Shown here: in pieces, positions 5,719 to 44,690 of the stretch
How positions within the stretch are numbered: position 1 is the first letter of the stretch
Layout: every line of letters starts with the position of its first letter
NCBI GenBank assembly: GCA_964187785.1
Contig: OZ076409.1
Coordinates: 60,824,001-60,888,000 of the forward strand
Direction of reading: 5' to 3'
Length of the DNA: 64,000 nt
Source of the DNA: Amphiscolops sp. MND2022
Lineage: Eukaryota
Notes under the pieces: generated by a model
The model's input: only the letters and a program-made list of their open reading frames with translations
What the model was told of the DNA's origin: nothing
The model's database searches: none
Translations under genes and position numbers: made by a program

Positions 5719-7225
5719 CATTACAGTGGGGTAACCGGCAACGAAAATGCAGATTTTACTCGTTGTGCGGCTCGGAAAATGATGGACATGAATGAATGTA
5801 TGGGCCAAAAATGCCCATTCGTTTCGCAGCCAAAACTGTTGCCTATTGATTTCCGAGGAAGCACAAGCTACGTATTGAGTTTCTTTGCAGGAGCGATGGC
5901 TTTAATTGCCCATGCATACTCGTTGATGAGAGTAAATTGGGCAAGTAATTCCATCGCTTGCTCAAAGAATTTCAAGATTTAGATAGATCTGCCACTCGCT
6001 TCGGCCAATTCAATACACTGCTCTGACATGGAAGTGTCTCAATATTTATCTACACATGCAGATTTTCAGTGTTCAGTTTTTGGTTTATCAAATTAATTCA
6101 GTTAAAATTAATTTAGTTATCAAATTAAATTCTTAATTTTTTTTGACTAAGAAATATCAGCTCAACTATTATTTTCCCAGTATTTTAGGCGGGACAAATA
6201 AAATTGGCAATGACGAAAATCTTCGTTCCGAAGCCGATATCTGCAGGAATATAACCCTAATAATTTTTTCGTTCCGGCCAATCACTGCAAGATTATTATC
6301 GTGATAAATTTTAGTTTACTTTATTTTAATACTGTTTAATACTTAACTATTCTTTTCTTTTGTATATAATGGCAATTATGATCGGGCAATTATGATAATT
6401 ACAAATATTTTGATGTATTATGATGTGTAGGTATATTATGATGTGTTAGTATGTAATTTTGATGTATTTCATTTTTTTGGAACTTATTAAATCAGTATTC
6501 TGTGAATCGTTTTTGTTTTGGGGCGAAAGAACAGTATAGTTGATATATAATACGAGTTTAAGTTTTTTCAATCATAACAAAAAATTGTTTGATAGTTGTA
6601 CACTTACTACAGAAACAACTTTATTCAACTATTCACCTTGATTGATATATATGGTTGTTTGATATTTATTAATTTAATTGGTATCCTGTGAATCGTCATT
6701 GATTTATTTATTGACAATTAATCTAATCATCAAAAATCAGGATTCTTTGTTTTGGGCAAAAGAACAGTATAGTTGATATATAAAATGAGTTTAGGTTTTT
6801 TCAATCATAACAAAACAATTGATTTTTTCATATTTATTAATTGAGTTGGTATCCTGTGAAACGTCATTGATTTATTTATTGAGAATTGATCAAATGATTG
6901 TTCTGATATTTACCATTTTTTCAAAGTGTGAACGTTCTTATCAGTTGTTAAAGTCAACGCTCCAAGAAGTGGAATGTTACTAAATGTTCAAAGTAATTTC
7001 ACTTCCATTTTAGTGATTTAAGTGCACAAGTAAATCAGTAAGATTGTTGTAATACGGGAGCAAAAGTTTATTTGTTTTTCTGTTGATCAAACTACATGTA
7101 ATCTTGATGAACGAAACCGAATACTCGCTTCTGATTGGACGAAATTCTTTCGTCGCATATTCCGATGAGGTCATATTGATACTGTGCGTGTAAAAGTTAG
7201 TCATTTGTTTTCAATTGTCATTGCC

Positions 7226-8313
7226 ATGTTAAAAACGTTACTTTTACGGATCCGGAAGCTGGACATTGAACTAGACGACTTACCGGACCATTTGAAACAG
7301 GTTAGAGTTAATCAGTTGATTTATTAACTTTCAGGGTTGGCTTTTTAATACTTTGGTTTTAATAATTGCTTTCAATATTTTTTCTTGATAAACGTTGGTG
7401 ATTTCCTAAATAACATAACAAACAACAAAAATAAAATTAGTTTCAAAACACAAAATTGAAATGAGTTTCACTAAACATACAAATGAATGCAAATAACATA
7501 AAAACAAAATTAGTGTCAAAGAACATAAAAATAAAACCGAATACCCGGTAAAACGATCGAACTCAGAAAATTTTATCTGTAATTTCCACACTTTTTTCAG
7601 TGAATCTTTTGAATTGTGTATGCTTTTGACCACTGATATTTTCTCATTAACAATTTTATTTTTATGTTTAGTGAAACCCATTTCATTTTAATGTTATTTG
7701 AAACTAATTTTGTTTTTATGTTATTTGCTCTTATGTTATTTGGGAATTCACCGATATTTCTTAGTCAAAAAAAATTAAATATAATGCTTATATAGAAATA
7801 CACTGTTATTCTAATCTCAAAAGTTTTGCTCATTTGGTTGCCAGAAATTCGGTTACGGATATCAAAACGTGCCCATGGATTCCCGAGTTTTGGAAGGCCT
7901 TGTCGGTTACCCCACTTTAATGTAAATTTGGCAAATTTGTTGTTTTTTTCAGCCCAAATTTAGGCCAAGCCTTCATCATGATAGAGAAGCCAGTACCGAA
8001 GCAGTTCTTCAAGAACACCGCGGCGTTTCGACTGACAGAGATGAGCCAACCGTCTGTCAGAGTTAGTTTTTAACATGAACTTTTTGAAATCTTACATGTG
8101 TCTATGTTTTGACTAATGCCCGCAGTTCATCAACCACTATTTGAACACATGAATAATAGGAAAACTAAATCCGAATGTTTCACGTTTGACTACGTTGCTG
8201 CAGGAAACGAGGAAGTTGAGACCGATGATGAACAAGTCACTCTCCAGGAGCACATTTTGACTGATAGGGATCAAATCAGCCTCCTCAACGATCCGACCGT
8301 CTGCCCCAGTTAG
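7226..8313 (+). CDS. Possible small 3-exon gene (7226-7300, 7953-8061, 8204-8313), unknown product
   Basis: ATG plus phase-compatible GT/AG sites. Exons 2 and 3 are paralogous (VLQEHRGVSTDRD..PTVCQ vs TLQEHILTDRD..PTVCP). No recognisable domain. Confidence 0.3.
7391..7758. mobile_element. AT-rich MITE-like inverted repeat element
   Basis: ggtgatttcctaaataacataa...aaaattagtttcaaa at the left end is the inverted copy of tttgaaactaatttt...ttatgttatttgggaattcacc at the right end. Confidence 0.55.
7883..7922. repeat. Internal copy of the right terminus of the giant transposon
   Basis: ccgagttttggaaggccttgtcggttaccccactttaatg matches 24620-24659 with 2 mismatches. Confidence 0.9.
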
Positions 8314-8424
8314 TTCTTTTATATGATTCCTTGAGAGTGTTAATCGATATCTGCTTTTTGGAATATCCATTGGCATATTTTGAATTCAAAATTGACAAAG
8401 AAAACAAAACCCGAAGATAATATA

Positions 8425-8661
8425 CAGTAGTGATATTATTGAGAGCATCAAAAGGCAAATCTCAAAATCGAATATCTCTAAAACGGCAGTGGTTTATGAA
8501 AACTTATAAAAATAAACGTATTCTAGATTTTTATCTAGTTTACAAATATGTTTGTTTGAAGATTTTTTCGAAAATACATGTTTTGGGATGACTTTGAAGT
8601 TTTTTTTTCACCTGCCGCAGACTTTGAAGCGGCTTTGTTGCTTTTAAAAATATCACCACTG
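8425..8661. mobile_element. MITE with TA TSD (Tc1/mariner-type), copy 1
   Basis: TA|CAGTAGTGATATT...AATATCACCACTG|TA; related to 18511-18690. Confidence 0.7.
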
Positions 8662-8750
8662 TATTTGACTAGATGACAATGACTAATATTCCAACAAAAA
8701 TTATATAAAAACTGATAAGTTAAAAACAAAGTTCGAGTTTATCAATGGTT

Positions 8751-11166
8751 TTACTCGGCATTACCGCCGAAAATTCTTTTGGCTTCGGGGTCCATGTAAT
8801 CAAACATCAGCTGCTCCAGGGGTTCAATTTTCCGCTTTGCAATAAGTAGCACGTAACGCGGATTATTTTTCAAGTATGTACATTTCAATTCGACCAGTTT
8901 CATGTTACAAGCTGGGTTGGTCTTTCCACCATCAAAGGTACTTGAGTAATTGCACAATCGAGCAAGGCACCTTCTGCCATCGTTGTGGATGGGGCATATT
9001 TCCGAGGTTGCATCAATAATTCTTCCCGGCCTTGTTTTAACCTCGATGCAGTATTCTGGCTTGCGGTTCTCTGGGTCCAGACTGCAGTAGTAGTCGACGT
9101 TGTTCGTGTTTTCTTCTACATGTCCGTGGTAGTCAAAAATAACGTCATCCTTGTTAAATGGTTTGGTCGCGATTATTCCTCGACCCATTGTAGGATAGAC
9201 AACATCGCAGACGCCTGGCCAGAATTGGTTTTCGCATCTATCTTTCAAGTCATCTTGGAAGTAAGGGGTATTGCAAAGTCTCCATTCTAGATTTGGATTG
9301 AATGCTTTTTTGCGCGAACTTTGTCGAGATCTTGATACCCCAGACATTCTAGAAGAAGCATCCATGACTCTCTTTACATCTGTGAAGTGGGGCCAGTTGA
9401 CCAAGTTTGCAAAATCGATTATTCTCTCTCTTTCTTTCGCAGGGTCAGCTAGTGATGTAGGGTAGTGGCTCTTGTATTCGGCCGCCCTAATATCTGCTCT
9501 TTGATGCCTAAGTGCTTGAATTCTTTTTTCGACTACTTTCATGACCGTTCTGTCATCGTAATGTCCGCTGGGCCTCAAATGTTTTTTGACTTCCATCATC
9601 AGGTAAGATTCAGACCAAAATTCTTCTTCTGCTGAACATTTTGAAAGTGTCATCAGTTTGACAGTTCTTTCCAATCTGTCCATTTCACGTTCGGCTGGGT
9701 TTCTTGTCAAGTCGGAAAACTAGAACACGCAGATAGTTATTGAAATAAGCGAAAACTGCAAAAGGAAGATGTTTTTGATTTTCCAACTTGTGATTATGTC
9801 TTATGGTTACTATCGACTAATACAAATCAAACTGAGTCAAGTAATTCTTATCAAACAGTATTTGATTAGTTACCTGTTCAATCCGATTTCTTATGTTCCG
9901 CACTTTGAATTGTGTTTTTCCCCAGCTGTTGACAAAGAATGGCTCCGTCATGACGTAATATGGTGGTATCCCTTGACTGGGTGACTGCATGAACCTTTTT
10001 TTCTGGTCGATACCTTCAGGTTTTATGAAGTACGGTCGTACAGCTTCAAAATATATTAACATTGCTTCTCCAACAATGTGAGGAATTCTGAAGCTGTCCA
10101 AGTACCCAGCTTCATCTTCAATTTGCAAGACAAACAAGTCACTTGAGTTAGAACTTCTATTGTGCTGAATTTGAGGGACCATTTGTAAAACGGCATGAGT
10201 TGTAATGCTCAAAATTTTGCGATCTCTACACTTTGGAATAGAAAATTCCAGCAAATAAGCAATGAGGTCCCCAAACAAATTGGTTTTGTCAATGCTGGTT
10301 AGAGATTTTGCGAATTTGAATTGCTTCATTATGTCATAAAGGTCTGACAAGAGTCGCGCTTCAACAGTTGTGCATAATGTTAGGTGCACTGGGGTAATTT
10401 CTCGCAAATTTTTCTCATAGTTTTTGGGAACACATCGTTTACTTTTTGGGCCATGGTTTTCCTCATCATAATGGTTAAGTTTCCGCTTGTTCGCTATCTC
10501 CTGTTGGCATCTTTCCATGTTTGCCAAGGTGTCGTTGCAAGAACGGCTCAGCTGACTTGCCATGATATCACTCGGAGTTTGGCTCAGCTGACTTGCCGCG
10601 ATATCACTTGAAGAACGGCTCAGTTGGCTTGCCATGATGTCACTCGGAGTGTGGCTCGTACTGTCACTTGGGGTGTGGCTCCGTTGATTCGTCGTACTGT
10701 CACTCGGTGTGTGGCTCAGTTGATTCGTCGTACTGTCACTTGGAGTGTGGCTCAGTTGATTCGTCGTACTGTCATTCGGAGTGTGGTTCAGTTGATTTGC
10801 AGTGTTGATTAACAGAGGTGTCATTTGATTTGCAGCAAGTTGAGCTTGTACCATTATCGAGACGTCCGAAGGGCTATCTTCATAATTCACACCTTCTATA
10901 TTAGAGATTTGTGAAAATATCCTTTGTTCAACTTGGGTGAAACTTGGCCAGCTTTTAGATGACACACTGGGTGATCCATACAACTGTTGTGTCGAACTAG
11001 ATTGATCCAAGGGAGTACTCATGTAGTATGCAAAGTTGCTTTCATTCGGTTTAAATGGAGTCGAAAATCTTTCAAATGTTTCGTTTGGAGCAACAGAATT
11101 TGTCACAGCCGGGCTAGTCCCCAAGACAGTGTAAGAGAGAGATTTCTCATGTTGAGGAGGGTTCAT
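8751..11166 (-). CDS. SET-domain lysine methyltransferase, SETD8/PR-Set7-like (~753 aa; exons 11166-9874 and 9719-8751)
   Basis: A phase-0 GT..AG intron (9873-9720) joins ..NRIEQ|FSDLTRNP.. in frame. SET motifs GRGIIATKPFNKDDVIFDYHG, IIDAT, LARLCNYS, LIAKRKIEPLEQLMFDY. N-terminal S/T-rich region and a possible tyrosine-recombinase-like remnant. Confidence 0.88.
10530..10800 (-). repeat. 36-bp coding tandem repeat (NQLSHTPSDSTT / SQLSRSSSDIAA)
   Basis: About 8 degenerate 12-aa units within the SET gene. Confidence 0.9.
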
Positions 11167-11781
11167 CGTTATGTAAAAGAGACTGTTTTCTAGCTACTGT
11201 TTGGATTGAATGGTGAGTGCTCAATCCTTTCCTTGAGCGATCCAAATTCGAACTAATTCAAAGACGCTTCGTCAATCAACTGTGGTATATTATAATTAAA
11301 GAAAAATGGTGATCTTCGTATTAAATAGTACATATATGATAATTATTCATTTCTGATAATGAATTATTTAATTATTGAAAAAAGTAGTACATACCGTTGG
11401 TAATAGCTTTGCGGATGTGCTATTTAGATTTGCATGAAGATGAGCTCATTTAAGGACGCTTTTCAAATCAACTGTGGTGATAATTACCTGATGACGTGCG
11501 AACCTTCAAATATCGTTTCAAAATAGGGGATAAAAACCGAAGTATGAAATAACGTAAGCTAATTGGCATAAAATGAATTGAATTTTCGCCCATCCGTTTC
11601 CGAGTGATGAAAAGCAATGAAAAAGCCATGTATTTCTGCGTTTCAAATTGCCCATGCGTTTCCAAGTCTTAAATGGCATTATCATTTTGATGATCTGTTC
11701 GGATATCTGAAATAGAATTTAAAATGTCGAATTTTTTTCAAACATGTTTTTCACCAATACTAATCGGAATATGTGTTTCAG

Positions 11782-14700
11782 AATGCCGGAGAAAATTCAG
11801 CGAAAAAGTTGCGTGCCAGAGGCACATGTACAAAGACTGGGCACCAAGGAAGAGACCTGTTGAAGAACACCAGCTGGAGTTCACCTGCATTGCACAAAAA
11901 ATTTACAGTCGGGCAAATTTTATTTGTCGCTTTTGTGGATGCGGCGAGAAAGACGGAGGACCGTTCTTTAGCTATCACAGGACCGCTCAACACTCCCTCG
12001 GAAGAACTTGCACCCTGAAAGTGTTTGAGTTGCAAAGGGAGGAATAGTACCCAGGAAATTTGTTGGAACCAACACCAGAAAACATCGAGGAATTGTGCAA
12101 GGAAAGTTCTGCTTACGATTGCCTGAAGCAAAAATACAAATCGTTTTATCTTAAAGGGGAATCCGCTGTTCTTAAAAAAAAGCCCAAAGGCAATGTGCCA
12201 GGAGAGTACAGCTGGTCGGAAAAAAGACGGCGGGAGGGGAAAGGTTATTCCCATCGAATCAAAGACCTGATTAAAATCAAAGGGACCCCAAAGAAGAAGA
12301 TCGAACACCCACGATGGCAAGCGAGGATGGATTCGAGAAGAAGAAGAGAACAGAGAAGGACGTCACGTCGGTACCGTCGAGTTCACATCGAACCAGATTC
12401 TGACAGCGATGAAGAAGCCCTCCAGGAAGAGACCTGTGAGGAAGACGAAAGTGAAGAAGAAGTAGCCACACACGTTCGCCAAGGTACAATAAAATCCTAT
12501 CGTTTTACTTATATCAATTTTTCGACATACCAGTTTGACTACTTGCCAAACGATTCCACTGATACTTATCGAAAATATTCGAAAAACATCCACAAATCTT
12601 CTCAATAACTTTATGATGATTTTGACGATTTTTGTTTCAGATTCCGACAGCAATGAAGCCCTCCAGGAGGAGACCTATGAGGAAGACGAAAGTGAAGAAG
12701 AAGTAGTCACACACTTTCCCCAAGAAGAGAACCGTCAAGAAGACGAAAGTGAAGAAGAAGTAGCCACACACGTTCGCCAAGGTACAATAAAATCGTATCG
12801 TTTTACTCATATCAATTTTTCGACATACCAGTTTGACTACTTGCCAAACGATTCCACTGATACTTATCGAAAATATTCGAAAAACATCCACAAATCTTCT
12901 CAATAACTTTTTAATGATTTTGACGATTTTTGTTTCAGATTCCGACAGCAATGAAGCCCTCCAGGAGGAGACCTATGAGGAAGACGAAAGTGAAGAAGAA
13001 GTAGTCACACACTTTCCCCAAGAAGAGAACCGTCAAGAAGACGAAAGTGAAGAAGAAGTAGCCACACACGTTCGCCAAGGTACAATAAAATCCTATCGTT
13101 TTACTCATATCAATTTTTCGACATACCAGTTTGACTACTTGCCAAACGATTCCACTGATACTTATCGAAAATATTCGAAAAACATCCACAAATCTTCTCA
13201 ATAACTTTATGATGATTTTGACGATTTTTGTTTCAGATTCCGACAGCAATGAAGCCCTCCAGGAGGAGACCTATGAGGAAGACGAAAGTGAAGAAGTAGT
13301 CACACACTTTCCCCAAGAAGAGAACCGTCAAGAAGACGAAAGTGAAGAAGAAGTAGCCACACACGTTCGCCAAGGTACAATAAAATCCTATCGTTTTACT
13401 TATATCAATTTTTCGACATACCAGTTTGACTACTTGCCAAACGATTTCACTGATACTTATCGAAAATATTCGAAAAACATCCACAAATCTTCTCAATAAC
13501 TTTATAATGATTTTGACGATTTTTGTTTCAGATTCCGACAGCAATGGAGAAGCCCTCCAAGAAGAGAACCGTCAAGAAGATGCAAGTGAAAAAGTAGCCA
13601 CACACGTTCGCCAAGGTATAATAAAATCCTATTGTTTTTCCTATATCAATTTTTCTACACCAATTTGTGAACTACTTGTCAAACGATTCCACTGATACTT
13701 ATCGAAAATATCCGAAAAACATCCAATCTTCTCTAACATTATAATGATTTTGACGATTTTTGTTTCAGATTCCGACAGCAATGAAGCTCTCCAAGAAGAG
13801 AACCGTCAAGAAGATGAAAGTGAAAAAGTAGCCACACACGTTCGCCAAGGTACAATAAAATCCTATTGTTTTTCCTATATCAATTTTTCTACACCAATTT
13901 GTGAACTACTTGTCAAACGATTCCACTGATACTTATCGAAAATATCCGAAAAACATCCAATCTTCTCAATAACTTTATAATGATTTTGACGATTTTTGTT
14001 TCAGATTCTGACAGCAATGGAGAAGCCCTCCAAGAAGAGAACCGTCAAGAAGATGCAAGTGAAAAAGTAGCCACACACGTTCGCCAAGGTATAATAAAAT
14101 CCTATTGTTTTTCCTATATCAATTTTTCTACACCAATTTGTGAACTACTTGTCAAACGATTCCACTGATACTTATCGAAAATATCCGAAAAACATCCAAT
14201 CTTCTCTAACATTATAATGATTTTGACGATTTTTGTTTCAGATTCCGACAGCAATGAAGCTCTCCAAGAAGAGAACCGTCAAGAATTTGAAAGTGAAAAA
14301 GTAGCCACACACGTTCGCCAAGGTACAATAAAATCCTATTGTTTTACCTATATCAATTTTTCTACACCAATTTGACTACTTGTCAAACGATTCCACTGAT
14401 ACTTATCGAAAATATCCGAAAAACATCCAATCTTCTCTAACTTTATTATGATTTTGACGATTTTTGTTTCAGATTCCGACAGCAATGAAGCCCTCCAAGA
14501 AGAGAACCGTCAAGAAGATGAAAGTGAAAAAGTAGCCACACACGTTCGCCAAGGTACAATAAAATCCTATTGTTTTACCTATATCATTTTTTCTACACCA
14601 ATTTGACTACTTGTCAAACGATTCCACTGATACTTATCGAAAATATCCGAAAAACATCCAATCTTCTCTAACTTTATTATGATTTTGACGACTTTTGTTT

Positions 14701-17332
14701 CAGATTCTGACAACGATGAAGAAGCCCTCCAGGAAGAGATCTGTGAGGAAGACGAAAGTGAAAAAGAAGTAGCCACACACGTTCGCCAAGGTACAATAAA
14801 ATCCTATTGTTTTACCTATATCATTTTTTCTACACCAATTTGACTACTTGTCAAACGATTCCACTGATACTTATCGAAAATATCCGAAAAACATCCAATC
14901 TTCTCTAAGTTTATTATTGTTTTGACGATTTTTGTTTCAGATTCTGACAACGATGAAGAAGCCCTCCAGGAAGAGACCTGTGAGGAAGACGAAAGTGAAG
15001 AAGAAGTAGCCACACACGTTCGCCAAGGTACAATAAAATCCTATCGTTTTACTTATATCAATTTTTGTACACCAATTTGCCTACTTGTCAAACGATTCCA
15101 CTGATACTTATCGAGAATATTCGAAAAACATCCACAAATCTCAATAATTTTATAATGATTTTGACGATTTTTGTTTCAGATTCCGACAGCAATGAAGCCC
15201 TTCAGGAAGAGACCTGTGAGGAAGACGAAAGTGAAGAAGAAGTAGCCACACACGTTCGCCAAGGTACAATAAAATTCAGTTTTCATAAAATATTGTTTCT
15301 CAGTTATTTGTTAAAAGAGATGAAAGGTAAAAAGCAAAAAAAATCAAAAAATCTTTACTTTTAAAAATAAAATCGGATTGAGTTAATTTTTAAAAAAATC
15401 GGATTTTGTTCCATCCATGTGTTCAAGGCAGTTTTACTAATACTTGTGCATATGTGTTTTTAGACACGACTTCGACTTGTTTACCTATATCAATATTACG
15501 TATCGAAAATATTCGACAAACAACCAATCATCTCAATAACGTTAAATTGATTTTGACGATGTTTGTTTCAGATTCTGACAGCAATGAAGAATCCCTCCAG
15601 GAAGAGAACCGTGAGGAAGACGAAAGTGAAGAAGTAGCCACACACAATCCCCAAGGTACAATAAAATCCTATTGTTTTACCTATATCAAAATTTCTACAT
15701 ACCAATTTTACTACTTGCCAAACGAATCCACTGATACTCATCAAAAGTATTCGAAAAACATCTACCAATCATTTAAAAAACTTTATTATGATATTGACAA
15801 TTTTCGTTTCAGATTCCAACAGCTACGAACAGGTTCAAGCAGAAGATGAAGAAGTTTCTCTGGTTGCATTTGTGGATGAAGCAGAGCATCATGAGCTGCT
15901 GGATGTAATCAGAGAATCTTCCGGGTCCGAGATGCGAGTTTGCTGCACCAATGTTTCCAGCAGCGAAATAGAGGAGGAGCTGCAGCGGAAAAGAGCCTGT
16001 ATTGTTCGAGGACATATGGATGGTATGAAATTGCCCAACATCAACTTTGGAGCGCGAAGAAACATCTTCGAAGACTGTCTACACGCAGAAGATGTACAAT
16101 TATCTGTCCGAATGTACAAACCTGTCAGTGTTCGTTTTTGGCTTCGTCTTTTTAACTTCACCAATGAAAACCGAACATTTAAAAAATATTAGGGTTTTTA
16201 TATTTTAAAACCAAAATTGTAGATCTTCGAAGTGTATTCTTTTTTCATATACAACACATGTCTATTTCAGCTGCAAAAACTCCTGTGTTTGACACTCTCA
16301 GGAAAAGATTTTGTAAATGCCATTGAGTTTGGAGCTATGAGCGGCCCAATGAATGTCTTTGATCTTAGCTCCAGTCTCACAAAGAACTTGCATTTCGATG
16401 TACCAACGGCAGTTAAAGAACTTTCAGTGTCTCATTTATTCAATTTTGAGCTGGAGCAAAATTGCTATATTCTTCTCAGTCAAAAAGGTTCCATTACACC
16501 TTGGCATGTTGACTACACGAATACCAGCGTCTTTTACCATCTTCTTCACGGTAAAAAAGAGTTTTTCATGATTCCTGGAACAGTTCGAAACCAAGAAATT
16601 CTCGAGAATTGGTGCATTGAGGCAACAAAACAAAATGTTTTCCTACCAAGTGACACCCACCTCCAAAGTCAAGTGTTTAAAGTGACGATAACAGGCGGCG
16701 AGTCAATGATCATGCCAGCAGGCATGATACATATGGTCAGAACCTGTGCGGACAGCGTGGCCGTGGGATTCAATTTTCTCACCATCTGTGATCTAGGTAA
16801 TTTTGAAATTCAGTTTTCATATAATTGTTTCTCAGTTGTTTGTTAGAAGAGATAAAAGGTAAAAAGCAAAAAAATCGAAAAAATCTTCATTTTTAAAATT
16901 AAAATCGGATTAAGTTAATTTCTCAAAAAAATTCGGGTTTTACTTCTTCTATGGGTTCGAGGCAGTTTTACTAATGCTTGTGCATATTTGTTTTTAGACA
17001 CGACTTTGACTGTTTACCAGAGGGAACGGGACAATGATGAACCTCTTGAGAAATGTTTCCCACATTTCTTATCGTTAATGACGAAAGTTATTCTAGAGAG
17101 TGCCATTGGGAACTGTAGGCTAATGAAATGGGAGCTTCTGGCCAAAGCACTACATGTCCTCAGCTTCAATTCCAAAAATGACAGCCGATCCAAGAGCAAT
17201 CGACGAAAATTTGTGCAAACTATCAACCGGTACATGTCTCTCAATTTCCCAAACAGGAACATATCATTAACTCACCTATTTCAAATTGTTGACAAAAAAC
17301 TCGGTCGAAACACTTTTTGGTCTCTTGATTGA
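11782..17332 (+). CDS. JmjC histone demethylase, KDM2/KDM7 (JHDM1/PHF8)-like, multi-exon; one in-frame TAG at 12045-12047; first exon not located
   Basis: Exon 11782-12483 (C/H zinc-finger-like, then basic tract), 12 acidic phase-1 exons, then 15813-16123, 16271-16796 and 16998-17332, all with compatible GT/AG phases. JmjC motifs SITPWHVDYTNTSVFYHLLHGKKEFFMIP and MPAGMIHMVRTCADSVAVGFNFL (H-x-D...H triad and 2-oxoglutarate-binding T/K intact). Post-JmjC helix VYQRERD...CFPHF. Confidence 0.85.
12397..15830 (+). repeat. Tandem exon+intron array (period ~298 bp, then ~231-239 bp) inside the JmjC gene
   Basis: Acceptors tttcag|ATTC precede exon starts at 12641, 12939, 13237, 13532, 13769, 14005, 14242, 14473, 14704, 14941, 15180, 15572 and 15813. 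Donors are CAAG|gtacaa/gtataa. Exon peptide DSDSNEALQEE..EDESEEEVATHVRQ. Confidence 0.95.
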
Positions 17333-17733
17333 TTAGTTCGTTGAAAACCATTTTCGAGATGAAATTTTTTGTTTTACATATTCCTAACCTTTATTATTTT
17401 ATTTCATTGTATTGATATATATTATTATTAAATCTCGAAACTTGTTTTCAGCGAAGTATTTCAGCACTTGATGCAATTTCGCAGTTTACTGTAGTAATAC
17501 TTTAGAATTTTGAATTCCAGTTCTTGGTCTTTGAAAGATTTGGTTTTATTCTTTCTTTTCGGTTTTTACTTAGTATTTTGCGCTGCTACTTTTTGGTACG
17601 TTTCAATTTTGAATTTGTTTAAAACAATTCGAATGATTCAATTAAATTTTGACAATAAAAACAGGTAAAAATAATTTATTATTGTTCGAATCAAAGTTTT
17701 CACGATTTATCAATTATGATTATCAAATGATTC

Positions 17734-20700
17734 TCAGTCTGATGAGTCTGAGGATGATTCATCGTGTTCTTTCTGAGCGTCATTCATTTTTTCTTGTTCG
17801 CGCTTCTTCAGCATTTCTCGTCGTTTACGAAGTACCGATGTTATAGCTGAAGTTGTGTTTTGTAGTTCGGGATTCCTCTGAAGAAGGAAAATTTTGCGAT
17901 GATCACGAACAGAAGTTGATGGGATGTCTGGCCCTGGTTTGAACGCAAAAGACTCCACATCCAAAATTGTTGAAGTTTCGATACTTTTCAAAATATAGTC
18001 AACGGATAGAAACGTAAGTCCACGACTGGCCAAGTGTCGTAAAACGTAACTGGTTCGACTTGGTTCATTTAGTTTCCTTTTTTTGCATTTTCCTTTGGCC
18101 ATAACTTCTGTCACTTGTGGCAAAGAATCACACGACGTTGTTGCACTAATAAGATCTGTGTCATTTTGGAGAACCACGTAAATGTGTGGCAACTTGGAGT
18201 GTCTGGAGAGGAGAGTATTCAATGCTGCTCGTTCTAGAACTTTCCCTCCCGCTTTTTTGATAACTTTTTTGAGACACTCAGCGGGTCCAAGAGTTTTTCC
18301 ATCTTGGTTTTCATGTTGAATTCGTTGCTCTTTATTGAATTTCCCGTGCAGAAAGAATCTCGATCCTGGAGCAAACGGAATATTGTTTAGTTCTGTGAAA
18401 ACAATTGGTTATATACCGAACTTCGAATATGTAACAACAGGTTTCTAAGGTGGTCCTTCCATTGCCGAACGTGCTTATTGCCGTATAATTCTAAGACGGT
18501 TTTGCATGTACAGTAGTGAGATTATCAAAAACTTAGTATTTTCGAAAACGCCTATTTTTACAGCGTGGTTTCATTGAGACTTTAATATAATTTCTCAATC
18601 AAAACATATCAAGTCCTTCAGTCAAATGCTTTTTGATAGATATTTGATTCTAAAATTTGCCTTTTGTTGCTTTTAATAATATCACTACTGTATTCTATTT
18701 TCTTTGCTACGATCGTTCTGAACAGGTATGTAATTGCATCATTCAAAACTCACTGTTAAGCGAAGAACTAATTGCAAATAATAAGTTGAAAACATAAAAA
18801 TAAGTAGATTGAGATTGGATTTCTCTCTCCGCCAGAGAGAATTCCAATCTCAATCTACTCACTAATTGCCACAGTTGTTGAATGCGCGGTCGTCACCGGC
18901 AATCGACATCTATGGCAAGTAATACCAGCCAATGGCTACCACACACAATACCAGACACAATACCAGCCACTGGTTACCGAAGGCTGCACCAACAGCGGCG
19001 CAGAGAAGCGAACCTGTATACCAAGAGCGAACGAGCGGCGGAACGACGGAACGTCGCACGAAGTAACCACTACGCCAGTGGTACTTGGAATCTGTTGCTG
19101 TTTTGAGGAAGTTTTTCATCCGAGTAACTTAGGACTAATATTTGTCAACGTGTTGCGGTGCAATACAAATATTCAGCAAAACTCAAGTCAAACATTTGTT
19201 CAACGATCCACTACATTTATTTCGGAGTCGCAAGAAAAGCAAAATTCACACTATATTGTTGGTTTATCCAACTAAATTTCGCTAAATTTATACCACTTAG
19301 GTTTCATAACCAAAAAAGTTGGACGTGGGCATATAGGTACAAAAAAAATCCTTACCCAAGAAAAGGCGGGACTTCTCTCGAACTTTTCCAACGGGAATGA
19401 TGGCTTTCTCAGTTGGTCCCAGGGAGTCTAAAAAAGATAGGTTCACCTCTATGGGTTCATTGAAAAGCCGTTGATGGCAAAGTGAGAGCTGTTCGTCGAT
19501 TGTGCCTTCCAAAGACGAAAACCGGAGACCAGAACAGAAAGTGAAAAACATTTCGAGAAACATGGGGTCGGCGTGTCGAACTGTCCCTCCCCCTCGCATG
19601 GTCTTTTGCTGAAAGTCTCTATGGACATGATGATTTGATTTTTCGGGGCCTTCGCACAGGTGGTTAAAGGGTGATTCAATGTAGCCTCCTTCTAACAGCT
19701 GGGGAATCAGGCACAGTTTCAGTCTGTACGGTGTCAAACCTAGTTTTACATCGAACAGTACAATCGAAATGTGATAGTGGATTTCTGACCAGTATTTATA
19801 GTCGGAAAAGTCCTGTTCTTCGAATTTCTTCCTCGTCCTCATCAGCACGGTAAGCTGATTTAGTGACTTTCTCCAGAGTTCAGCTGCAACCAAAAGTTTC
19901 ATTTGACATGGGCTTTCGATATTTTCGAATGAATTGGGATGAAGATTTTTCAACACATTCATGCTTGCACTTTTTGTACCCGACAAGGCTCCAACAGTCT
20001 TGTTCTCGGAAAAAACTCCTTCGAACAGTTCATGCTGAACACCAGCCTCAGCAAGTTCGTACATATCAGCAATGCCAGTGATAGCTTCTCTGCCACTAAG
20101 GGAAATGGGAGCACATTTTTTGTTGCGTTTGTCAATGTCAAATTCGAAGCCAGGCTCTTTCCAACCTCTCTCGGTCAAATTGCGCTGAAAATTTTCCCTA
20201 ATATAATCAACTGTAGCTGAGTCATCTTCAGATTGGAGAATTTTCAACTCCATGAACTTTCTAATGTCTCCCTCGACACACCTTGTTATTGCATGAGTGC
20301 CGTCAGGACAAACGCATCTGATGTCTGGCAAAAACGTCAAACTTTCATGAGGAATGGTGGTTCGAAATGGTAGGCGAACATCACCTCGATGTCCACTTTT
20401 TTCGTGCACGGTTTCTGGTTTAACTGAATCGTCATTCCCAAGATACATCTGCAATTTTGATGGATTTTCTTCACTCTCCATGTGATCAACAGAGGTTCCA
20501 ATGAGAAGGCGATTTAGGAATGGTTGATCTCCACTGTATGTTAAAAGGACTCCGGCGTCATGGAGTTGTTTCGTCTGCTGGTAAAGCCAAGAGGAATCTT
20601 GCTCACCTAGTTGTAGGTACCCGACATTTTGCTCTAGCAACCAACGACCGTCGTGACCTGTAAACACGTATTGTAAAGTGTGCGAAGCTAACCTAGAGCT

Positions 20701-21700
20701 AAATTATATTTAAAGATTCAGCAGGACAAAATAGCAGAACATACCTTGGAAAACAGCAAAAGAGAAGAGTGCATCTGATGACTGATTGCTGATAGATGTT
20801 CCTTCGAGAAAACGGAAGGCCATTCGAGTTTGATCCTTTTTCCCTATTTGAACACCATCTCCCCAAATATCAACTTTCAGACCTTGCAAATCAGTTCTTC
20901 CTTTGAACAGAATGAATGTCATGACTTTGATAGCACGTACAAGATCAATTCTGAATCCCGAGAAAGTGTTTTTTGGTTTGAATAGGGATATAAACTTTGA
21001 AATCATCGGTTTTGACATCTCTTTGATCGCCGTATAACCAGGAATTAGTTGTTTTTGACCCAGTCCATCGACATGGAAAGTTTTTTTCAGCGTGTTGATC
21101 ATATTTATCCAACTACCAGTTTTAGTACAGATAAATATGTCTGACTTCAGCTTTTCGTACGATAAATAGTTTGAAAAAACACCCTTAACCAGAGCCTTGG
21201 CTTCAAATTGATGCAGAGAGGTCTTCTGGGCCTTAGTATGAATCCGCTTTTGTTCTGTAGCTGCTAATGTTGCGAGAATTGTATGCATCTTCTGACTGAA
21301 ACCTGATTCAGGTTTAGAAAACTGCTCCACTGGGATTGTTGGCATTGGAAGTGGATTGACAAAAGGTTGTGAGTCGGGAATTAGCTGCGGCGTATTTGGG
21401 AAAAAATAGGACACGTATCTTCTTCGTAATTGTGTCCATGGAAACCCACTTTGTAAACCACGAACAATTATTATTTGCAATATTCCAATTGCAACAAAGC
21501 AAGTTTTTTTTGTTTATTACACAATCTTCGAGTTTTAATTCAGTTCCTTCAATTACTATTTCGATCGCGCTTTTCAGTTTTCGAGATTTTTCTCTTATAA
21601 TATGCCCAGCAAAAACATCCAAAATTTTAGCATCCACAAAACTTTTTCCATCAATTGTTTCAGTGTAATCGTGCAGAAGCTTCTCGGGGTGTATTGTCAT
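17734..21700 (-). CDS. DDE transposase (RAG1/Transib/CMC-like) with C-terminal BRCT domain (~962 aa; exons 21700-20745, 20657-19356, 18365-17734; one frameshift in the T8 run at 21504-21511)
   Basis: Ordered motifs KVDIWGDG (D1), YSGDQPFL (D2), PDGTHAITR (DxxH), LTPY and LCEGPEKSNH (E), comparable with RAG1 SCDG / GYDEK / DALH / ITNY / SEGNESGNK. Spliced LFLG|SRFFLHGKF...LKKVIKKAGGKV...LSVDYILKSI is BRCT-like. Both introns are phase 1 and in frame. Confidence 0.78.
18511..18690. mobile_element. MITE with TA TSD, copy 2, in transposase intron 2
   Basis: TA|CAGTAGTGAGATTAT...ATAATATCACTACTG|TA; its right ~70 bp match the left end of 8425-8661 in inverted orientation. Confidence 0.7.
18803..18859. 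repeat. Near-perfect hairpin (25/26-bp stem, CCGCC loop)
   Basis: agtagattgagattggatttctctct-ccgcc-agagagaattccaatctcaatctact. Confidence 0.9.
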
Positions 21701-21789
21701 CCTGATTGTCGTACGTCGAAAGTTATATTGGAAGTTATTCTAGTAGTTGTTGTTTTTTCAAAAGCGTATTGACACTTTATCGTTTCCAC

Positions 21790-22150
21790 ACTAGCGTTTC
21801 CATTCTTGAAATGCGTCTGCTGGTTCGCAAAGCGTTTGACAAAAAATTATAAAATTATCGTATTACGTTATTGATGTTATTGATTATATCGGAAATAAAT
21901 CGAGTAATTGTAGTTTTAGCGTGTTCACACTCACGTGGATTTTGAAATGCGTCTGCTTGATCGAAAAGCGTTTGACAAAATATTATAAAATTATCGTATT
22001 ACGTTATTGATGTTATTGATTATATCGGAAATAAATCGAGTAATTGTAGTTTTAGCGTGCTCACACTCACGTGGATTTTGAAATGCGTCTGCTTGATCGA
22101 AAAGCGTTTGACAAAAAATTATAAATTTATCGTGCTACGTTTTGGATGTT
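21790..22150. repeat. 136-bp tandem repeat (~2.6 copies) between the divergent transposase and Tudor genes
   Basis: atgcgtctg at 21811, 21947 and 22083 with near-identical intervening sequence; the motif recurs near 22188 and 22210. Confidence 0.9.
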
Positions 22151-22409
22151 CCGTGCAAAAGTGTCTGGGGGTTTATTGTCATTTAAAATGCGTCTGACAA
22201 TTAATTAATATGCGTCTGACATTTAAAAATCATCTTATGCGTATGTAACGATTTGAGTCGATCAAACTCACTTGATAATCATTTGTCCCGATAACGATTT
22301 TATTTGCTCAAACTTGCTTGATAAACATTAGTGGCAAATGCAATACTGAAAATACTCGTTTACGAAATTAAATTTCTTGAAAAATAAAGCACTAATTTCA
22401 TTAATTGAA

Positions 22410-23978
22410 ATGGATTTCATCAGTGTTTTTGATATGAAAGAGCAAGTTCAAGTTTTGGATCCTGCAACAAAAATTTGGGAAGATGCTCGCATCATTGGGT
22501 TTGAAGGATCATTTGGAATCCGAGTGAAATACCTCAATTGGCCCGATAAACTTGTGAAGCGATTCGGATCAGACAGAATTGAAGTGTCCCCCAACACACC
22601 CCAAAATTGCTGGCCGGTTAGAAAATGTATAGTATTACAAGATGTCCGCGGTCGCCGGAAATCCAAGAAGCCAGCAGAAACCGTTTTTGACATCCCCGAC
22701 CCAAGAAAGCGCCAACTAGGGGACAGAATCTTTTTCACTGGGACATCACGGAAATCACCAGCGGACATTCCTAGTTTGGAAGAGGTTAGAAAAGATGCCG
22801 AGGAGTCGAAGCTGCTGAACTCGGGTTATGTTGTCATGAATGACCCATTCCAGCAAAATATGGCTGTTTCCTTCGACGGGCGCACAAAGGACATCCAGTT
22901 CATCGACTATGAACAAATTCGTCCGAAGAACTGGACTCATCCTGACACGAGGCAGCCTTCAGAGTTTGATTCGGAGCCCGAAGATGTCCAACCATCGCGG
23001 CAAAAAAAGAGAGTAGTAGAAACAGATGCAGAACCAGAACCCACTATAACCACTCCCAGACAGAAAATTGATATTGCCGCATATATTGCGAGTCTTGCCG
23101 AGAAAGACGAACTTCTGGACATTGTACCCTGCGAAAATGGTATTGCATCAGCAGGTAAATGATCAATTTGATTATTACTAGTCTAACTTCTACGGTACTA
23201 AAAAAAATCAAACAAAAAAACTGAAACCAAGTTTTTTGCCACGAGCGTCCTCTCGAAAAATTTACATGCTTATAGAAACTTTGTCGCATAAATCTTTCTC
23301 AAGTGGTTAATAAATTATTATTACTAAATGAAACTGAATATTCGCATTCTGTTATCAGGTGACCACGTTACGATAAACATTAGGAGCACGGTCTTCACGA
23401 TGAAATTGGAGAAGATATGGTTCGACGTGGAGATGAAGAAGGCCATGGCGAAACTGGTCGATGAAGAAGACAGATGCTACTCCATCACTTACCCAGCTGT
23501 AAAGCTAGTGTTGACAGAAGCAAACTACATGAAGCAGAAAGCTCTGGACTTGTCCGCAGCTTGTTCACCTGTGAATAGAGCTTTTCATTACCTGTCAGCG
23601 CTGAAACCTTTGGTCGGGATATCCCAGTCCAAACGCACAATGATGAATCAGGACATTTGCTTGGTTGACGAAATTTCCAAGAATATCTTTTTAATGGGTT
23701 CTGGACACCAAGTCAAATTTCATATAGATCCTGACTCAGAAAAGTTCCACAAAAATGCAGAATGGGACAGTACCCTAGGCCGACAATGGGATATGCTCCC
23801 ACCAATCTTCCCTAAAACTTTCTGCCACATTATCAAAAGCCTAAAATTTTCAATTAACAACGATTTTCTGCTGAAAACTGTGCGAGTATCTATCGATTGT
23901 TTCCAGGACAATTTAAATGGCGATGACGAATATCGTCGTTCCGCAGCCAATAATTGCAGAAGTCAGTTTAGTTTTTAA
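22410..23978 (+). CDS. Tudor/chromo-barrel (Royal family) domain protein (~454 aa; exons 22410-23154, 23359-23978)
   Basis: N-terminal FDMKEQVQVLDPATKIWEDARIIGFEGSFGIRVKYLNWP fits the F-x-x-x-x-x-V-x-V-x-D...W-x-x-A-x-I...V-x-Y-x-x-W barrel pattern. A phase-1 GT..AG intron joins ASA-G-DHV in frame. Confidence 0.68.
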
Positions 23979-24659
23979 ATTTATTCATTTTTTGTATCCA
24001 TTGCCATAACAATTGTGATATCTTTTCCATTATGTTTCTTAATTGAATCAGTCTCTTGTGAATCATTTTGTTTTCGATTTGGGGCAAAAGAACAGTAGTG
24101 GAGCGACATTGTAATAATTGACAACAATAACATTAAACAATTGAGTCAAACAAAAAGTAATGAGGATTAAATTGTTCAAAAAGACAAGCCCCCGGAAAGA
24201 TCTTATGATACCAATCTAATCTTCTTGTAATCTCCTAATCTTCCTATTGATTGATATATAGTATGAGTTTAAGCTTATTCAATTATATTAAATGAGAGTT
24301 GTTCGATTTAAGGTGGAATGATGAGAAGCATGGAAGCTTGATAATCATTATTCAAATTTATTTCGAAAAAAAGTACCTGGGAAGGGTTTACTAAAATTCT
24401 GATAATCGGCAAATCCTTATCTTTAGTTGATTAGGTATATCTCGGACATTTTTTGATATGTATTCAAAGTTTCTATCAAATTGAAAGGCCACACTTGGTG
24501 GGAAACGAATGGACAGATTATGTTCAACAATTAGTTGACTTCGCCCATGCGTTTCCGAGATTTTCAGTTATGAACAACAAAACTCGCCCATGCATTCCCG
24601 AGTTTTTGCCCAACATTTTCCGAGTTTTGGAAGGCCTTGCCGGTTACCCCACTGTAATG

Positions 24660-26790
24660 ACATTTGTTCAAAGTAACTAATTGATCAGGAATTTACTAGT
24701 GAAGGGTTGAAGGAACCATAGGGGCGATGGCTAGGTGTCTGTTGAAAACAGCATAATAACCTGAATCTTTTTGGCCGTTTGCATACCGAGGAGCTTTCCA
24801 TATAAAAAAACCGATGCCTTCACTCTGGTCATGGCACAACATCGTTCGGAAAATATTCTAACAAGACACCAGATGTGTCTCATTTTCGAGTTTTTGGGCG
24901 TCAAGCATTCATCTACTTAGAAAAACCAAAGCGAAACAGGTTTGAAAGTAGGGCTTTCGAAGGTTTTTTACTCGACTATAGCAACAATTCTAAGTCATTT
25001 TGATCGGATTTATTGGTGGCGCAGAGCTCATCACGATAAGTAGCCGCAATATTAAAATCATCGGGACTAGTTCCCCTGGTAAAACACACTTCGCAAACAC
25101 TGAAAGTGAAAAAGATTTTTTCTTTGAACCCAACGAAAGGGGTAGTGAAAAAGAGTTGTAGAACGCGAAATCAGTCGCCAAAACAAACTTGATTAGAGAT
25201 GTGAGTGAGTTCCAAAACGATGCTTTAAGCGGTAATCCAGAAACTTTGGTCACCGAAAGATCAGACGAGAGCATCGCACAAATTCCACCGCATAGTTCGA
25301 CTGAATATACTACGACTAGATACGGACGAAAAAGAAGCCGCCCAACAGATACACCCCAGGTACGAGCAGCAACTTGTCTTACAGTTTAGGTCTGGGTTCG
25401 ATAAAATTGAAACACTCGCATACCAGATGTTGATCAAAATTTACCGAAAAGCATTGAAGAAGCACTTTTTTCATCAGAGCGGTATCGTGCGATGAAAGCG
25501 GAATACTAATCGTTACAGAAGCTCGTTGATATGCTCGAAGGAAGAAACCTCGTAACAGGTAAATGGCATTTTGAACTTAAGCGAAATAACAAAGGGGAAG
25601 TTATTAAGCACAAAGCAATATACGTAGCTAGAGGATTCAAACAAAAACAAGGTGTCGACTACGATCAAACTTATAGTCCGACTGTTAAAATAGTAACAAT
25701 TCGAGTTTTGCTGAGTTTGGAAGTTCAAAAATAATGGTATTCAAACAGAAAAAGTTCACAAAGTCAAAACAGTTAGGCATAAAAACGCCAACTGGAACAC
25801 AGGTATAGAGGAAGAAATTTTTGTAGGTCAGCCACCAGGATTCGTTGAGGAAAATGCCAACAGGAAATGATTTGTTTGTAGATTGAAAAATTCTCTCATG
25901 GATTGAAGCAATCCGGTTGCAATTAGTTGAATGCACTTAGAGATTTTTTGTTTAGCATTCAGTTCAAGCCGAACAAGCCCTGAGGGGACGAAACGGTCAT
26001 AAGGACTTTGTAGCATGTTGGGTAGTTGAATTACTCTACTGTAGCGACGATAATAGGTTTTACGAAACGTTTGAGCAAAAAACTTTGGATCAAAGAAGTA
26101 GATGACTTGAACTGGTTCTACTGGTTCTTGGGAAAGCAAATTAGACGTGAAAAAGGCAGACTAGAAATTTGCCAAGAAACCCAAATCGAAAAATTACTTG
26201 GAAATTTTGGAATGAAAGATGCCAAAGGACTTTTCACGCCTGTTGCTGAAAAACAACAATCCAGTAAGTCAGACTGTCCTGACGAAGGCAGCCAAGAACA
26301 AAAGGAAATGAAAAATAGTTTTCGTGGAATGATTGGTTGCTTGAATTGCTTAGCGAACAAGACAAGACCTGATATACCTTTCGCTCTGGGGGCCTTAAGT
26401 TGTTACGTTCAAAAGCTATAAGTATGAAGTTCAATGGAACAGACAACGGTAGCGACTTCAACAGCTGAGCCAAAAGCATTGTCGTTCTTTCCAGCTTCTC
26501 AAGAACTGAGTTTCTACGAGGACTAGCAAACGAGAAAAAAAATATGCGGAAAAACTTACTAAGATAGATGTAGGCAATCAGGCTTGTATCGCGATAACAA
26601 AAGTTACAGTGAACTCTCAGAAAGTAAAGCAATTTGCAATCAAGTTGATTTTCATACAAAAAAAATTGCGACATTTAGATGTTAAGTTTTGTCCAGTGAA
26701 ATGATTTTTGACTTGCTAACTAAACTGTTGGCAAAAGTTAAGGTTGAAATGTTCAGCAAAAGTTTCTCCGGAAATTATATCTTGTAATCG
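24660..26790 (+). mobile_element. Same copia element, 3' part (rest of integrase, RT, RNase H), decayed
   Basis: Continues the integrase after the insertion (D-I-C-S-K-*-L-I-D-Q-E-F-T-S). RT motifs KWHFELKRN...KHKAIYVARGFKQKQGVDYDQTYSP and FRGMIGCLNCLANKTRPDIPFA. Purine tract aataggagg at ~26798. Confidence 0.9.
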
Positions 26791-29780: not shown

Positions 29781-30483
29781 TTAAAAAGACTTGTTAAGGG
29801 TTGGAGACGTACAAAATTACTTTGCATTCGCGGATAATTATCCCTAGAGTTTTCCAAGTCTCCTTTGTTGTAAGATATTAACCAAAAGCATAACTGTGAA
29901 AGACATCGGCAATATATTTACAAACCAGACGCCCGCTAAACATCGGGATATTTTCCGCTTTGTCAAAAAAATCAGACGAGAGGAAAGATTCGAACCCAAA
30001 ACCTACCCTGGTTAAAAAAATGCGTTCCTTGCAAGGATCTTGCAAGATTTTCTTTCAAGGTCTTGCAAGATAATGCATTTTTCTGCAAGACATCTTGCAA
30101 GAATCTTGCAAGAAAAAAAATTTCCTTGCAAGATTCTTCCAAGGAGAAAAATTTCGTGGAAAGTTCTCGACAATTTTTTTATTTTTTATATTCATTGTTT
30201 TTGACTTCAAGTTGACTACTGCATCGTGACTATTAGATTCTGTCACAGAACGGGGTTTACTTACTAGAGGATTCAACCACCAAAAAGATGCAAACTCTAG
30301 AAAATATCTCTAAAAGTGTGATCTTAGTGAAGTTATTTGAAAAGTAGTAGTACATTTCAGTGACGCAACATCTAAAAAACAATTTCAGAGTATCCTGAAA
30401 ATTTTTTCCAACCAGATGTGTTATGTACCTGTTGACAAGCAATTGATAAGATTAAAAGCAAATAAGAATCGTTCCGTTTCAAG

Positions 30484-32178: not shown

Positions 32179-32724
32179 ACCCCCTCCATCAGTCTTTACT
32201 GTACTGTAGTTACGGTGTCCAGACTTCATTGTCCGGTTGAAGTTTCTACAGTAGTTTACCCGTCTTCTTGAGTTGTGTCCGGACTTAATTGTCCGGTTGA
32301 TACTCAGAAGTCTACTCCCCGTCTTTCTTCCTGCCGTTTGGACAGTGTCCAGACTTAATTGTCTGGTTGAAGTTCTTTCGGCCTTCTTCCGCCCCTTGGG
32401 CACTTAATATTGGACGAACCTTTGTCCTTTCGGGAAGAGCGTGTTTTTAAATCATCGTCTCGTTCCATGTTACTTCTTCCTGTGTCTTGTAATTACTTTT
32501 AAAAAACAAACAACCGCAAAACTACTCTACCGTTGCTGTTATCGTGAGATACAGCTCCCATCATCCAAAACACACCGTTACCGTTAACCCAAAATTTCTC
32601 CGTTCAGCTGTGTCTAAGCTTAATTGCTTGGTTGACGCTGTCGAAGAAACTGTTCCTCGATCTATTTTGAATAACACTTTCCTTACTACCTTGATTCATT
32701 CTCTAACAAAAGATCACGACAAAG

Positions 32725-44289: not shown

Positions 44290-44690
44290 AGAGCGGGCAG
44301 TTTAAAAACATTTACGTACTAAGAAAAATAAATTGGGTTACATTAAAAAGTAAGTATTAGTAAAAGTGAGTATTAGGAAAAGTTAGAATTACGCAAAAGT
44401 GAATTTTCACTCCTCTTTGGCATCGTCGAGAGTTTCATGAGAATATAAGTCGTCCTCTTCTTGCAGAACTTCAAATCTCTTGATTGCCCTAACCGCCAAA
44501 ACGTTGTACCTCAAGAACAACATCTTCTCCATTAAGTCATTGGATAGGCTCGCACGCATTTTGGTGTGAATAGACTTGTTTGGAGAATACCCTCTCAACT
44601 TCTGTCTCGATTGAAAAAAAAATTCCTGAGAAATGTAACCAGACATGTGTATCGTTCTTATTGCAGTGACGGGCAATTTCTGAGAAAGGG
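44290..44690 (-). pseudogene. hAT transposase C-terminal remnant
   Basis: TEVERVFSK plus, after a frameshift, IHTKMRASLSNDLMEKMLFLRYN (dimerisation domain). Confidence 0.75.

Follow-up and report, generated by a model that had tools for sequence, protein, structure and literature searches.

In RAG1, Transib and all transposases of the CMCT clade (CACTA/Mirage/Chapaev/Transib/Plavaka), the domain that binds zinc is regarded as essential and as a defining feature. The elements of this clade share CA..TG ends, target-site duplications of 2-5 bp and, in their transposases, a C(2)C and an H(3-4)H motif (Kojima 2025, PMC12730594); according to that paper, both motifs are kept in all seven CMCT lineages, and a figure legend lists two cysteines and three histidines. 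Likewise, RAGL elements duplicate 5 bp (PMC9435367) and their proteins are described as keeping the four zinc ligands of the ZnB domain (10.1101/2023.08.20.553239). Here we analysed a 64,000-nucleotide stretch of contig OZ076409.1 (positions 60,824,001 to 60,888,000, forward strand) from the genome assembly GCA_964187785.1 of Amphiscolops sp. MND2022, hereafter the window, to which all coordinates refer. A minus-strand gene in this window most probably codes for the transposase of an 18.9-kb DNA transposon that has multiplied recently; the enzyme has a predicted zinc-free RAG1-type D-D-E fold, and the SET and JmjC cargo of the element likely rewrites histone methylation and keeps the element active.

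The transposon is real, young and mobile. As defined by copies sharing both ends and by matches to the end motif, it spans positions 5719 to 24659 (18,941 bp, no strand assigned) and is bounded by 23-bp terminal inverted repeats, i.e. CATTACAGTGGGGTAACCGGCAA at 5719-5741 on the plus strand and, on the transposase 5' side, its perfect partner (100 % complementary) at 24637-24659 on the minus strand. The termini read CATTAC...GTAATG, and the end motif has 152 exact matches genome-wide versus none for the reversed control. The element is flanked by the dinucleotide AC (5717-5718, plus strand, second copy at 24660-24661), identified from uninterrupted copies of the long terminal repeat (LTR) element into which it has inserted: a single AC is present at the empty site in 11 of 11 such copies. 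A 2-bp duplication was found in all 25 copies inspected (7/7 in a first set and 18/18 further ones); among the latter ten different dinucleotides are duplicated and none matches at 4-6 bp. Since empty sites and the 25 flank pairs agree, the element starts with CATTAC and duplicates any 2 bp; an alternative delimitation with CAGTG ends, a TA duplication and CATTAATG as target was ruled out by the same data. Both window ends, from 24659 to 5719, are common to all six copies fetched with long flanks, three of which align in one piece at 99.7 %, while two differ in tandem-repeat number and one is short by about 550 bp. Inverted repeats, target duplication and dispersed copies mark the element as a cut-and-paste DNA transposon. 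A search of the 1.07-Gb genome with the 433-residue transposase core gave 98 matches, 21 of them with 99-100 % protein identity over all 433 residues and 45 with 41-45 %, and these many near-identical copies rule out a domesticated single-copy gene. Sister families in the same genome number at least three, namely pA of 17.8 kb, pB of 19.9 kb and pC of 15.2 kb, all beginning with CATTAC; five of their seven copies with both ends found show a 2-bp duplication, the two misfits adjoining a TCAA satellite.

Several smaller features belong to the element itself. A degenerate internal copy of the transposase-side end lies at 7880-7922 on the minus strand (about 91 % over 44 bp), and two short non-autonomous derivatives of 1.6 kb (L148, G000:C3:45569550-45571182) and 0.7 kb (L149, G000:C6:71517832-71518507) have intact ends and 2-bp duplications. 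Near one end, an AT-rich palindromic segment (7400-7780 and 6133-6158) shows 82-90 % DNA identity with pA and pB, unlike their remaining DNA, which has diverged from the window element; a swapped cis-element and a nested small element are both candidate readings.

The transposase gene is composed of three minus-strand coding blocks separated by GT-AG introns: exon 1 (21700-20745), with an N-terminal domain of about 105 aa, a helical region and the first catalytic Asp; exon 2 (20657-19356), with the second Asp, a DxxH motif, a zinc-less insertion domain, the TPY helix and the catalytic Glu; and exon 3 (18365-17734), with a single BRCT domain and a basic/acidic tail. The D-D-E motifs that a first-pass annotation of this locus had placed in RAG1-like contexts are all present on this strand and conserved in homologs, i.e. 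WGDG (D codon at 20859), SGDQ (D at 20529), PDGTH (D at 20304, H at 20295), TPY (19734) and EGPEKSN (E at 19644). The observations of that annotation hold in part, but its 962-aa spliced model does not. The 19356/18365 GT-AG junction is in frame, and the predicted spliced sequence, RLFL followed by GSRFFLHG, matches contiguous sequence of intronless homologs; in an intronless sister open reading frame (ORF) of 1017 codons from the same genome, the core and the BRCT domain lie in one frame. However, the three exons sum to 962.33 codons and the unmodified reading stops after 128 aa. Because an A8 run in exon 1 (21511-21504) is out of frame, the window copy does not encode the 962-aa protein; a reading that starts at an ATG at 21345 runs through without a stop and yields 844 aa, in which both the complete catalytic core and the BRCT domain are included. 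The frameshift was overlooked in the first-pass annotation, as were the 18.9-kb element and its chromatin-modifier cargo. Intron 2 further contains a hairpin with 26-bp arms (18803-18859), an opposite-strand open frame of 155 codons (18808-19275) and a segment (18627-18702) that is an inverted match to 8413-8488.

To assess the fold, the intronless sister transposase was modelled with AlphaFold2 from an alignment of 25 rows, with a mean predicted local distance difference test (pLDDT) of 72.5. With Foldseek, RAG1 was the top match (E 8.7e-7), followed by HzTransib (3.4e-5), BbRAGL (1.5e-4) and Hermes (5.7e-3). The VIA structural search likewise placed RAG1 first (Z 16.7, 378 residues aligned, root-mean-square deviation (rmsd) 3.9), before BbRAG1L (Z 15.5, 396 aligned, rmsd 7.1) and HzTransib (Z 12.4, 354 aligned, rmsd 7.5), and assigned model residues 824-966 to the MDC1 BRCT domain (Z 11.7, 93 aligned, rmsd 2.2). 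The RAG1 match covers the whole catalytic core, model residues 256-740 corresponding to mouse RAG1 497-1008, and D315 sits in a strand, D395 at the end of a strand and E690 in a helix, the arrangement of RNase H folds. An RNase H-type fold of the RAG1/Transib kind is therefore predicted, in agreement with the RAG1/Transib-like transposase with a C-terminal BRCT domain of the first-pass annotation.

The DxxH motif, invariant in the family (D465, H468), would also suit a transposase of the P/hAT/MULE/Kolobok group, which is reportedly characterized by (C/D)xxH after the second Asp, a grouping said to go back to Yuan and Wessler in 2011. Such a transposase would have no C2C/H(3-4)H site and nothing would have been lost, and the P element transposase does match the model (Z 10.3, 276 aligned, rmsd 4.2; Hermes Z 7.2, 281 aligned, rmsd 5.3). 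We consider this very improbable. The Z scores of RAG1 and BbRAG1L exceed that of the P element by 5-6 units, with about 100 more residues aligned, and the first 45 Foldseek ranks among the matches listed are all RAG or Transib. The TPY and GDxPF motifs are CMCT-like, and P elements duplicate 7-8 bp, against 2 bp here. The same difference applies to hAT elements (7-8 bp; PMC12730594).

A profile search returned 534 clusters (50 % identity) at E <=0.001, the weak matches among which may be BRCT-only, and 152 at 1e-30; the best 150 of the 534 were considered. The family alignment comprises 157 proteins and the translations of 8 loci; as fragments are frequent among them, counts refer to the rows spanning a position. 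D1 is an Asp in 42 of 54 rows (12 gaps), D2 in 79 of 85 (4 gaps), and the catalytic Glu is kept in 92 of 110 (11 gaps). H468 of the DxxH motif is present in 87 of 95 rows (7 gaps) and, judging from its position, probably represents the clade's further conserved His after D2. Of 69 rows, in contrast, 2 contain a CxxC between D2 and DxxH, at differing places, and the conserved column is Ser in 60 rows. An H(3-4)H before the catalytic Glu was found in 7 of 88 rows, each time using the conserved His just before the Glu, and a His within nine residues after TPY in 4 of 89 rows, each with a single one. The first-pass annotation had noted that the window protein appears to lack both halves of the zinc site, with neither a CxxC following D2 nor a pair of His residues following TPY; on the evidence of the aligned sequences, this absence of the C2C and H(3-4)H ligands is family-wide. 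D2 is followed by a conserved loop, PS(K)(L/M)P(L/M)Y, which may be a relic of the CxxC knuckle.

A tree of 44 rows, built without a known outgroup, has two supported deep subclades, both zinc-less and with BRCT. Relatives are also encoded at 14 metagenome loci, and all 20 clusters looked up are annotated merely as 'hypothetical protein'. As the family has no transposase Pfam match, it has likely been missed or mislabelled in repeat annotations. As side observations, genes of the sister families recur near-identically (75-95 %) on long contigs of public metagenome assemblies (P0196-P0198, P0002 cluster), so that closely related hosts must be present there, and the second deep subclade (P0072, P0073, P0074, P0076 and P0081; about 19 % profile identity) bears an extra C-terminal tail that looks HMG-box-like, its one supporting match being the SSRP1 HMG box at E 1. 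RAG uses HMGB1 as a cofactor.

How does this family relate to the described lineages? With the CMCT clade it shares the CA..TG ends, the 2-bp duplication, the predicted fold and the further His after D2, but it lacks both the C(2)C between D2 and E and the H(3-4)H before E. RAG1, RAGL (ProtoRAG) and Transib provide the best fold match and have in common with it a D-D-E triad with a large insertion, a His motif after D2, a TPY-like helix and a Glu in an ExxE context; identity is 10-13 %, however, and the C2C/H(3-4)H ligands, i.e. the four ZnB residues, are missing. Transib elements duplicate 5 bp. RAGL and Transib combine a 5-bp duplication with CAC ends (CAC..GTG, resembling recombination signal sequences), in contrast to 2 bp and CATTAC in the window family, which moreover adds the C-terminal BRCT domain and the chromatin cargo; in its accessible portion, 10.1101/2021.09.26.461848 does not mention BRCT. 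Kelch or PHD (RAG2-like) Pfam matches were found in none of the element ORFs, though the third cargo gene is without an assigned fold. Judged from these sequence features, the transposase is neither Transib nor RAGL, having the wrong target duplication, the wrong ends and no zinc motifs.

The nearest ends are those of PlavakaB, for which CATCA..TGATG and 2-3-bp duplications are described (PMC12730594), compared with CATTA..TAATG here (CATxA..TxATG, four of five terminal letters matching) and a matching 2-bp duplication. In addition, giant Plavaka elements of red algae (17-19 kb) carry SET and 2-oxoglutarate (2OG)-oxygenase accessory genes (10.1101/2025.02.11.637652), resembling the window families in size (15-20 kb) and in three accessory genes including a SET domain and a 2OG-dependent oxygenase. 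En/Spm elements of 16-20 kb have also been described, in Chondrus (PMC6431247). Both large size and chromatin cargo thus have precedent. It is therefore possible, if somewhat unlikely, that the family is a derived animal-type Plavaka (PlavakaB) branch or another named CMCT lineage (Mirage, Lanisha or an EnSpm subgroup in Repbase) which secondarily lost its zinc ligands and gained a BRCT domain. However, none of 25 members matches PF18759 (Plavaka), CACTA or RAG1 Pfam models at E <=1 (genome searches with PF18759 and PF12940 gave no signal anywhere, their controls being equally silent, and do not speak for an absence), and Plavaka, like all seven lineages, is said to keep both zinc motifs (PMC12730594). 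The cargo also differs, i.e. ParB-2OG or DNA-methylase-SET in giant Plavaka versus SETD8-type SET and KDM2/7-type (KDM2/PHF8-like) JmjC with zinc fingers here, and BRCT is not reported in the accessible portions of 10.1101/2025.02.11.637652 or PMC12730594.

EnSpm/CACTA, Mirage, Lanisha and ESTA likewise have CA..TG ends, 2-3-bp duplications and, in some cases, accessory genes but, unlike the window family, reportedly retain the C(2)C and H(3-4)H motifs (PMC12730594). EnSpm/CACTA elements have CAC..GTG ends and CACTA Pfam domains, in contrast to CATTAC and no CACTA match among the 25 members, and ESTA is TA-specific, whereas the window element duplicates many dinucleotides; Mirage and Lanisha were compared by description only, Lanisha by name in PMC8245031. 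SET-encoding HarbingerS and TET/JBP-carrying fungal transposons, in the available accounts, also bring along chromatin- or DNA-modifying enzymes with a proposed anti-silencing role, but they belong to other transposase superfamilies and carry one modifier each, not a pair of histone writer and eraser. No description of a BRCT-fused or zinc-less RAG1-like transposase was found in the literature searched, Repbase Reports and preprint supplements being outside its reach. The combination of such a transposase with likely histone writer and eraser cargo was not encountered there either, and the family is likely an undescribed lineage. The element works like a CMCT/RAG1-type transposon and, by the features tested, stands outside Transib, RAGL, CACTA and Plavaka; the divergent lineage of the CMC/Transib/RAG group postulated in the first-pass annotation is backed by the fold, the family alignment and the CA..TG ends with 2-bp duplications.

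The A-run in exon 1 varies among otherwise near-identical copies. In the 21 young copies it is A9 in 12, A8 in 7 and in frame in 2 (L010 and L020), while older copies have an in-frame A10 in nine of nine cases; three of 30 loci (L001-L030) are stop-free over the covered stretch. An intron bridging the 5' frameshift was ruled out, as homologs and in-frame copies are collinear over the site. The variable run length would also be expected of a homopolymer error in the assembly, in which case all young copies would be intact and autonomous. Against such an error, the older copies in the same assembly are all in frame, and length changes at the other A7/T8 runs are rare among the young ones (2 of 21 for the T8 at 19348, 0 of 21 for the A7 runs), which makes it an unlikely explanation and a weaker one than mobilization in trans or slippage. 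Slippage at the A-run possibly controls the expression of full-length transposase.

The BRCT domain of exon 3 is recognized by Pfam BRCT_2 (E 3.3e-6, 27.7 bits versus a cut-off of 27.3). The fusion is family-wide (of the 63 rows that have the catalytic E and a tail no shorter than 200 aa, 62 include an aligned BRCT) and is predicted for the window gene, as the first-pass annotation had it, from the contiguity of domain and core in the intronless homologs. That annotation had further suggested the recruitment of repair factors, for which we found no backing beyond the identity of the domain. A phosphopeptide reader bringing DNA-damage factors, such as gamma-H2AX-bound or non-homologous end-joining proteins, to excision sites would be in line with the best structural matches (the BRCTs of MDC1, 53BP1 and Crb2, Z 10.2-11.7) and with a weak profile match to the DNA ligase IV BRCT (E 0.041). 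But many BRCT types score within 1-2 Z units of each other, and the fold therefore selects no function. Phosphopeptide-binding BRCTs are tandem domains with a Ser or Thr before a conserved Gly (BRCA1 S1655, MDC1 T1898), whereas here the domain is single in 75 of 75 proteins with a BRCT-region match, none having two, and the residue at this phosphate-pocket position is hydrophobic (I/L/V/M in 68 of 81 rows). A role as phosphopeptide reader thus appears doubtful.

The cargo set is the same in all four families and consists of a gene with a SETD8-like SET domain, one with a KDM2/PHF8-like JmjC domain and a third gene without family match, each conserved at 24-42 % identity across the sister families and, apart from one deletion, intact in six young copies. 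The SET gene (8751-11166, minus strand; two ORFs, predicted to be spliced, and a single 680-aa ORF in pC) encodes a low-complexity N-terminus, a conserved helical domain and a SETD8/KMT5A-like SET domain (Pfam SET E 2.5e-8; 14 of 14 PDB matches SETD8; profile E 1.7e-14 to SETD8). Its middle domain (9817-10300; L115; YF..VRP.F, FFVNSxGK) looks tyrosine-recombinase-like by eye and had no family match in library searches. The JmjC gene (11724-16846, plus strand; predicted multi-exon, partial exon model) combines a Cys/His-rich (C2H2-like) N-terminus, for which the sister-family counterparts have zf-C2H2 matches, with acidic repeats and a KDM2A/PHF8-like JmjC domain containing HxD...H (Pfam JmjC E 1.1e-9; KDM2A E 3.6e-18, PHF8 3.7e-17); tandem units of 231-298 bp, each with an acidic mini-exon and a splice donor, occupy 12422-15275. 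The third gene (22410-23978, plus strand) stands head to head with the transposase gene and has a predicted intron (23155-23358); both parts are conserved in the sister families (tblastn E 1e-12 to 1e-17) and form one ORF in pC. No Pfam or PDB profile match was obtained for it, and its N-terminus is SH3/Tudor-like by eye only. Between these divergent genes lie 136-bp tandem repeats of variable copy number (21802-22150, no strand assigned), a candidate bidirectional promoter region. SETD8 writes H4K20me1, KDM2A removes H3K36me2, and PHF8 removes H3K9me1/2, H3K27me2 and H4K20me1. The SET and JmjC genes likely act in histone methylation and demethylation.

Several points weigh against a zinc-free RAG1-type transposase accompanied by anti-silencing cargo. 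The modelled protein is the sister transposase, which shares 45 % identity in the core with the window protein, and not the window's own spliced product; in this model the helix with the catalytic Glu (688-712) has a pLDDT below 50, and a clustering of the three acids in space is putative. Sequence searches (PDB phmmer, PDB profile, and Pfam on 25 members) found no RAG1, Transib, CACTA or Plavaka, BRCT alone being recognized; matches to MreB (E 0.18 and 1.3) were noise. The N-terminal 120 residues of the sister protein, modelled alone, reach a pLDDT of 90 and have no significant PDB match by profile, Foldseek (E >=0.19) or VIA (best Z 4.3); DNA-binding domains of Dachshund, Ski, Mbp1 and Swi6 are overrepresented among the weak VIA matches, and a viral library gave weak Bro-N/KilA-N rows without ranges, which hints at a KilA-N/Bro-N/Dachshund-like domain. 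As to zinc, the invariant D465, H468, H684, E687 and H694 could form another metal site, so loss of the bound metal itself is suggested by the missing ligands rather than seen. A comparison of the young with the old subfamilies gave 12-14 synonymous versus 14-18 non-synonymous codon changes in exon 2; the signal is weak, and decay after insertion contributes to it. The SET domain of the window family reads NYS, in contrast to NHS or NHK in the sister families, and the anti-silencing role of the cargo is putative.

By homology and from the features above, a transposase oligomer would bind the CATTAC ends, probably via the N-terminal KilA-N/Bro-N-like and helical domains, and excision would probably resemble that of RAG and Transib, with a nick and the formation of a hairpin in the flanking DNA. 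The element would then be inserted at practically any dinucleotide, with a presumed 2-bp stagger. In the absence of zinc, the insertion domain would be stabilized by the PS(K)(L/M)P(L/M)Y loop, in place of the CxxC, and by the TPYKxK helix, in place of the His pair. The single BRCT domain more likely holds on to DNA ends or to a partner protein, with no recognition of phosphoserine, and the cargo enzymes may keep the chromatin of the element open. The out-of-frame young copies (19 of 21, including the window copy) have likely been mobilized in trans by those few copies that are in frame, or produce full-length enzyme only via slippage.

It is tempting to go one step further, and on balance we slightly favour the view that these elements represent a superfamily-level new lineage of giant transposons: the only RAG1-fold transposases working without the core zinc, fused to BRCT, with their own histone methyltransferase, demethylase and zinc-finger targeting module editing their own chromatin, present as hundreds of divergent members in metagenomes and in genomes that lack annotation, still multiplying and perhaps tuning full-length output via the slippery A-run. 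A large, still-moving family without all four ligands would be a natural experiment on the role of zinc and would offer a new outgroup for tracing how RAG arose, and the in-frame copies make the transposase directly testable in transposition assays. The 19-kb natural payload and the near-random choice of 2-bp targets are of interest for a tool, while a conserved histone writer and eraser on one transposon would widen anti-silencing from DNA methylation to histone marks.

Regarding the surroundings, the element interrupts a degenerate LTR retrotransposon of the Ty1/copia-like kind within its integrase region (4739-5718 and 24660-25300; zf-CCHC and Pol_BBD matches), and this flank has at least 39 other genome copies. 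Further downstream, a BEL/Pao retrotransposon ORF of 1507 aa (32707-37230; Peptidase_A17, DUF1759 and reverse transcriptase) is enclosed by a perfect 34-bp inverted repeat at 30015/37587 with subterminal repeats. Five tandem 1.57-kb units occupy 44600-52600, and a direct repeat at 59066/62317 is spaced by 3.25 kb.

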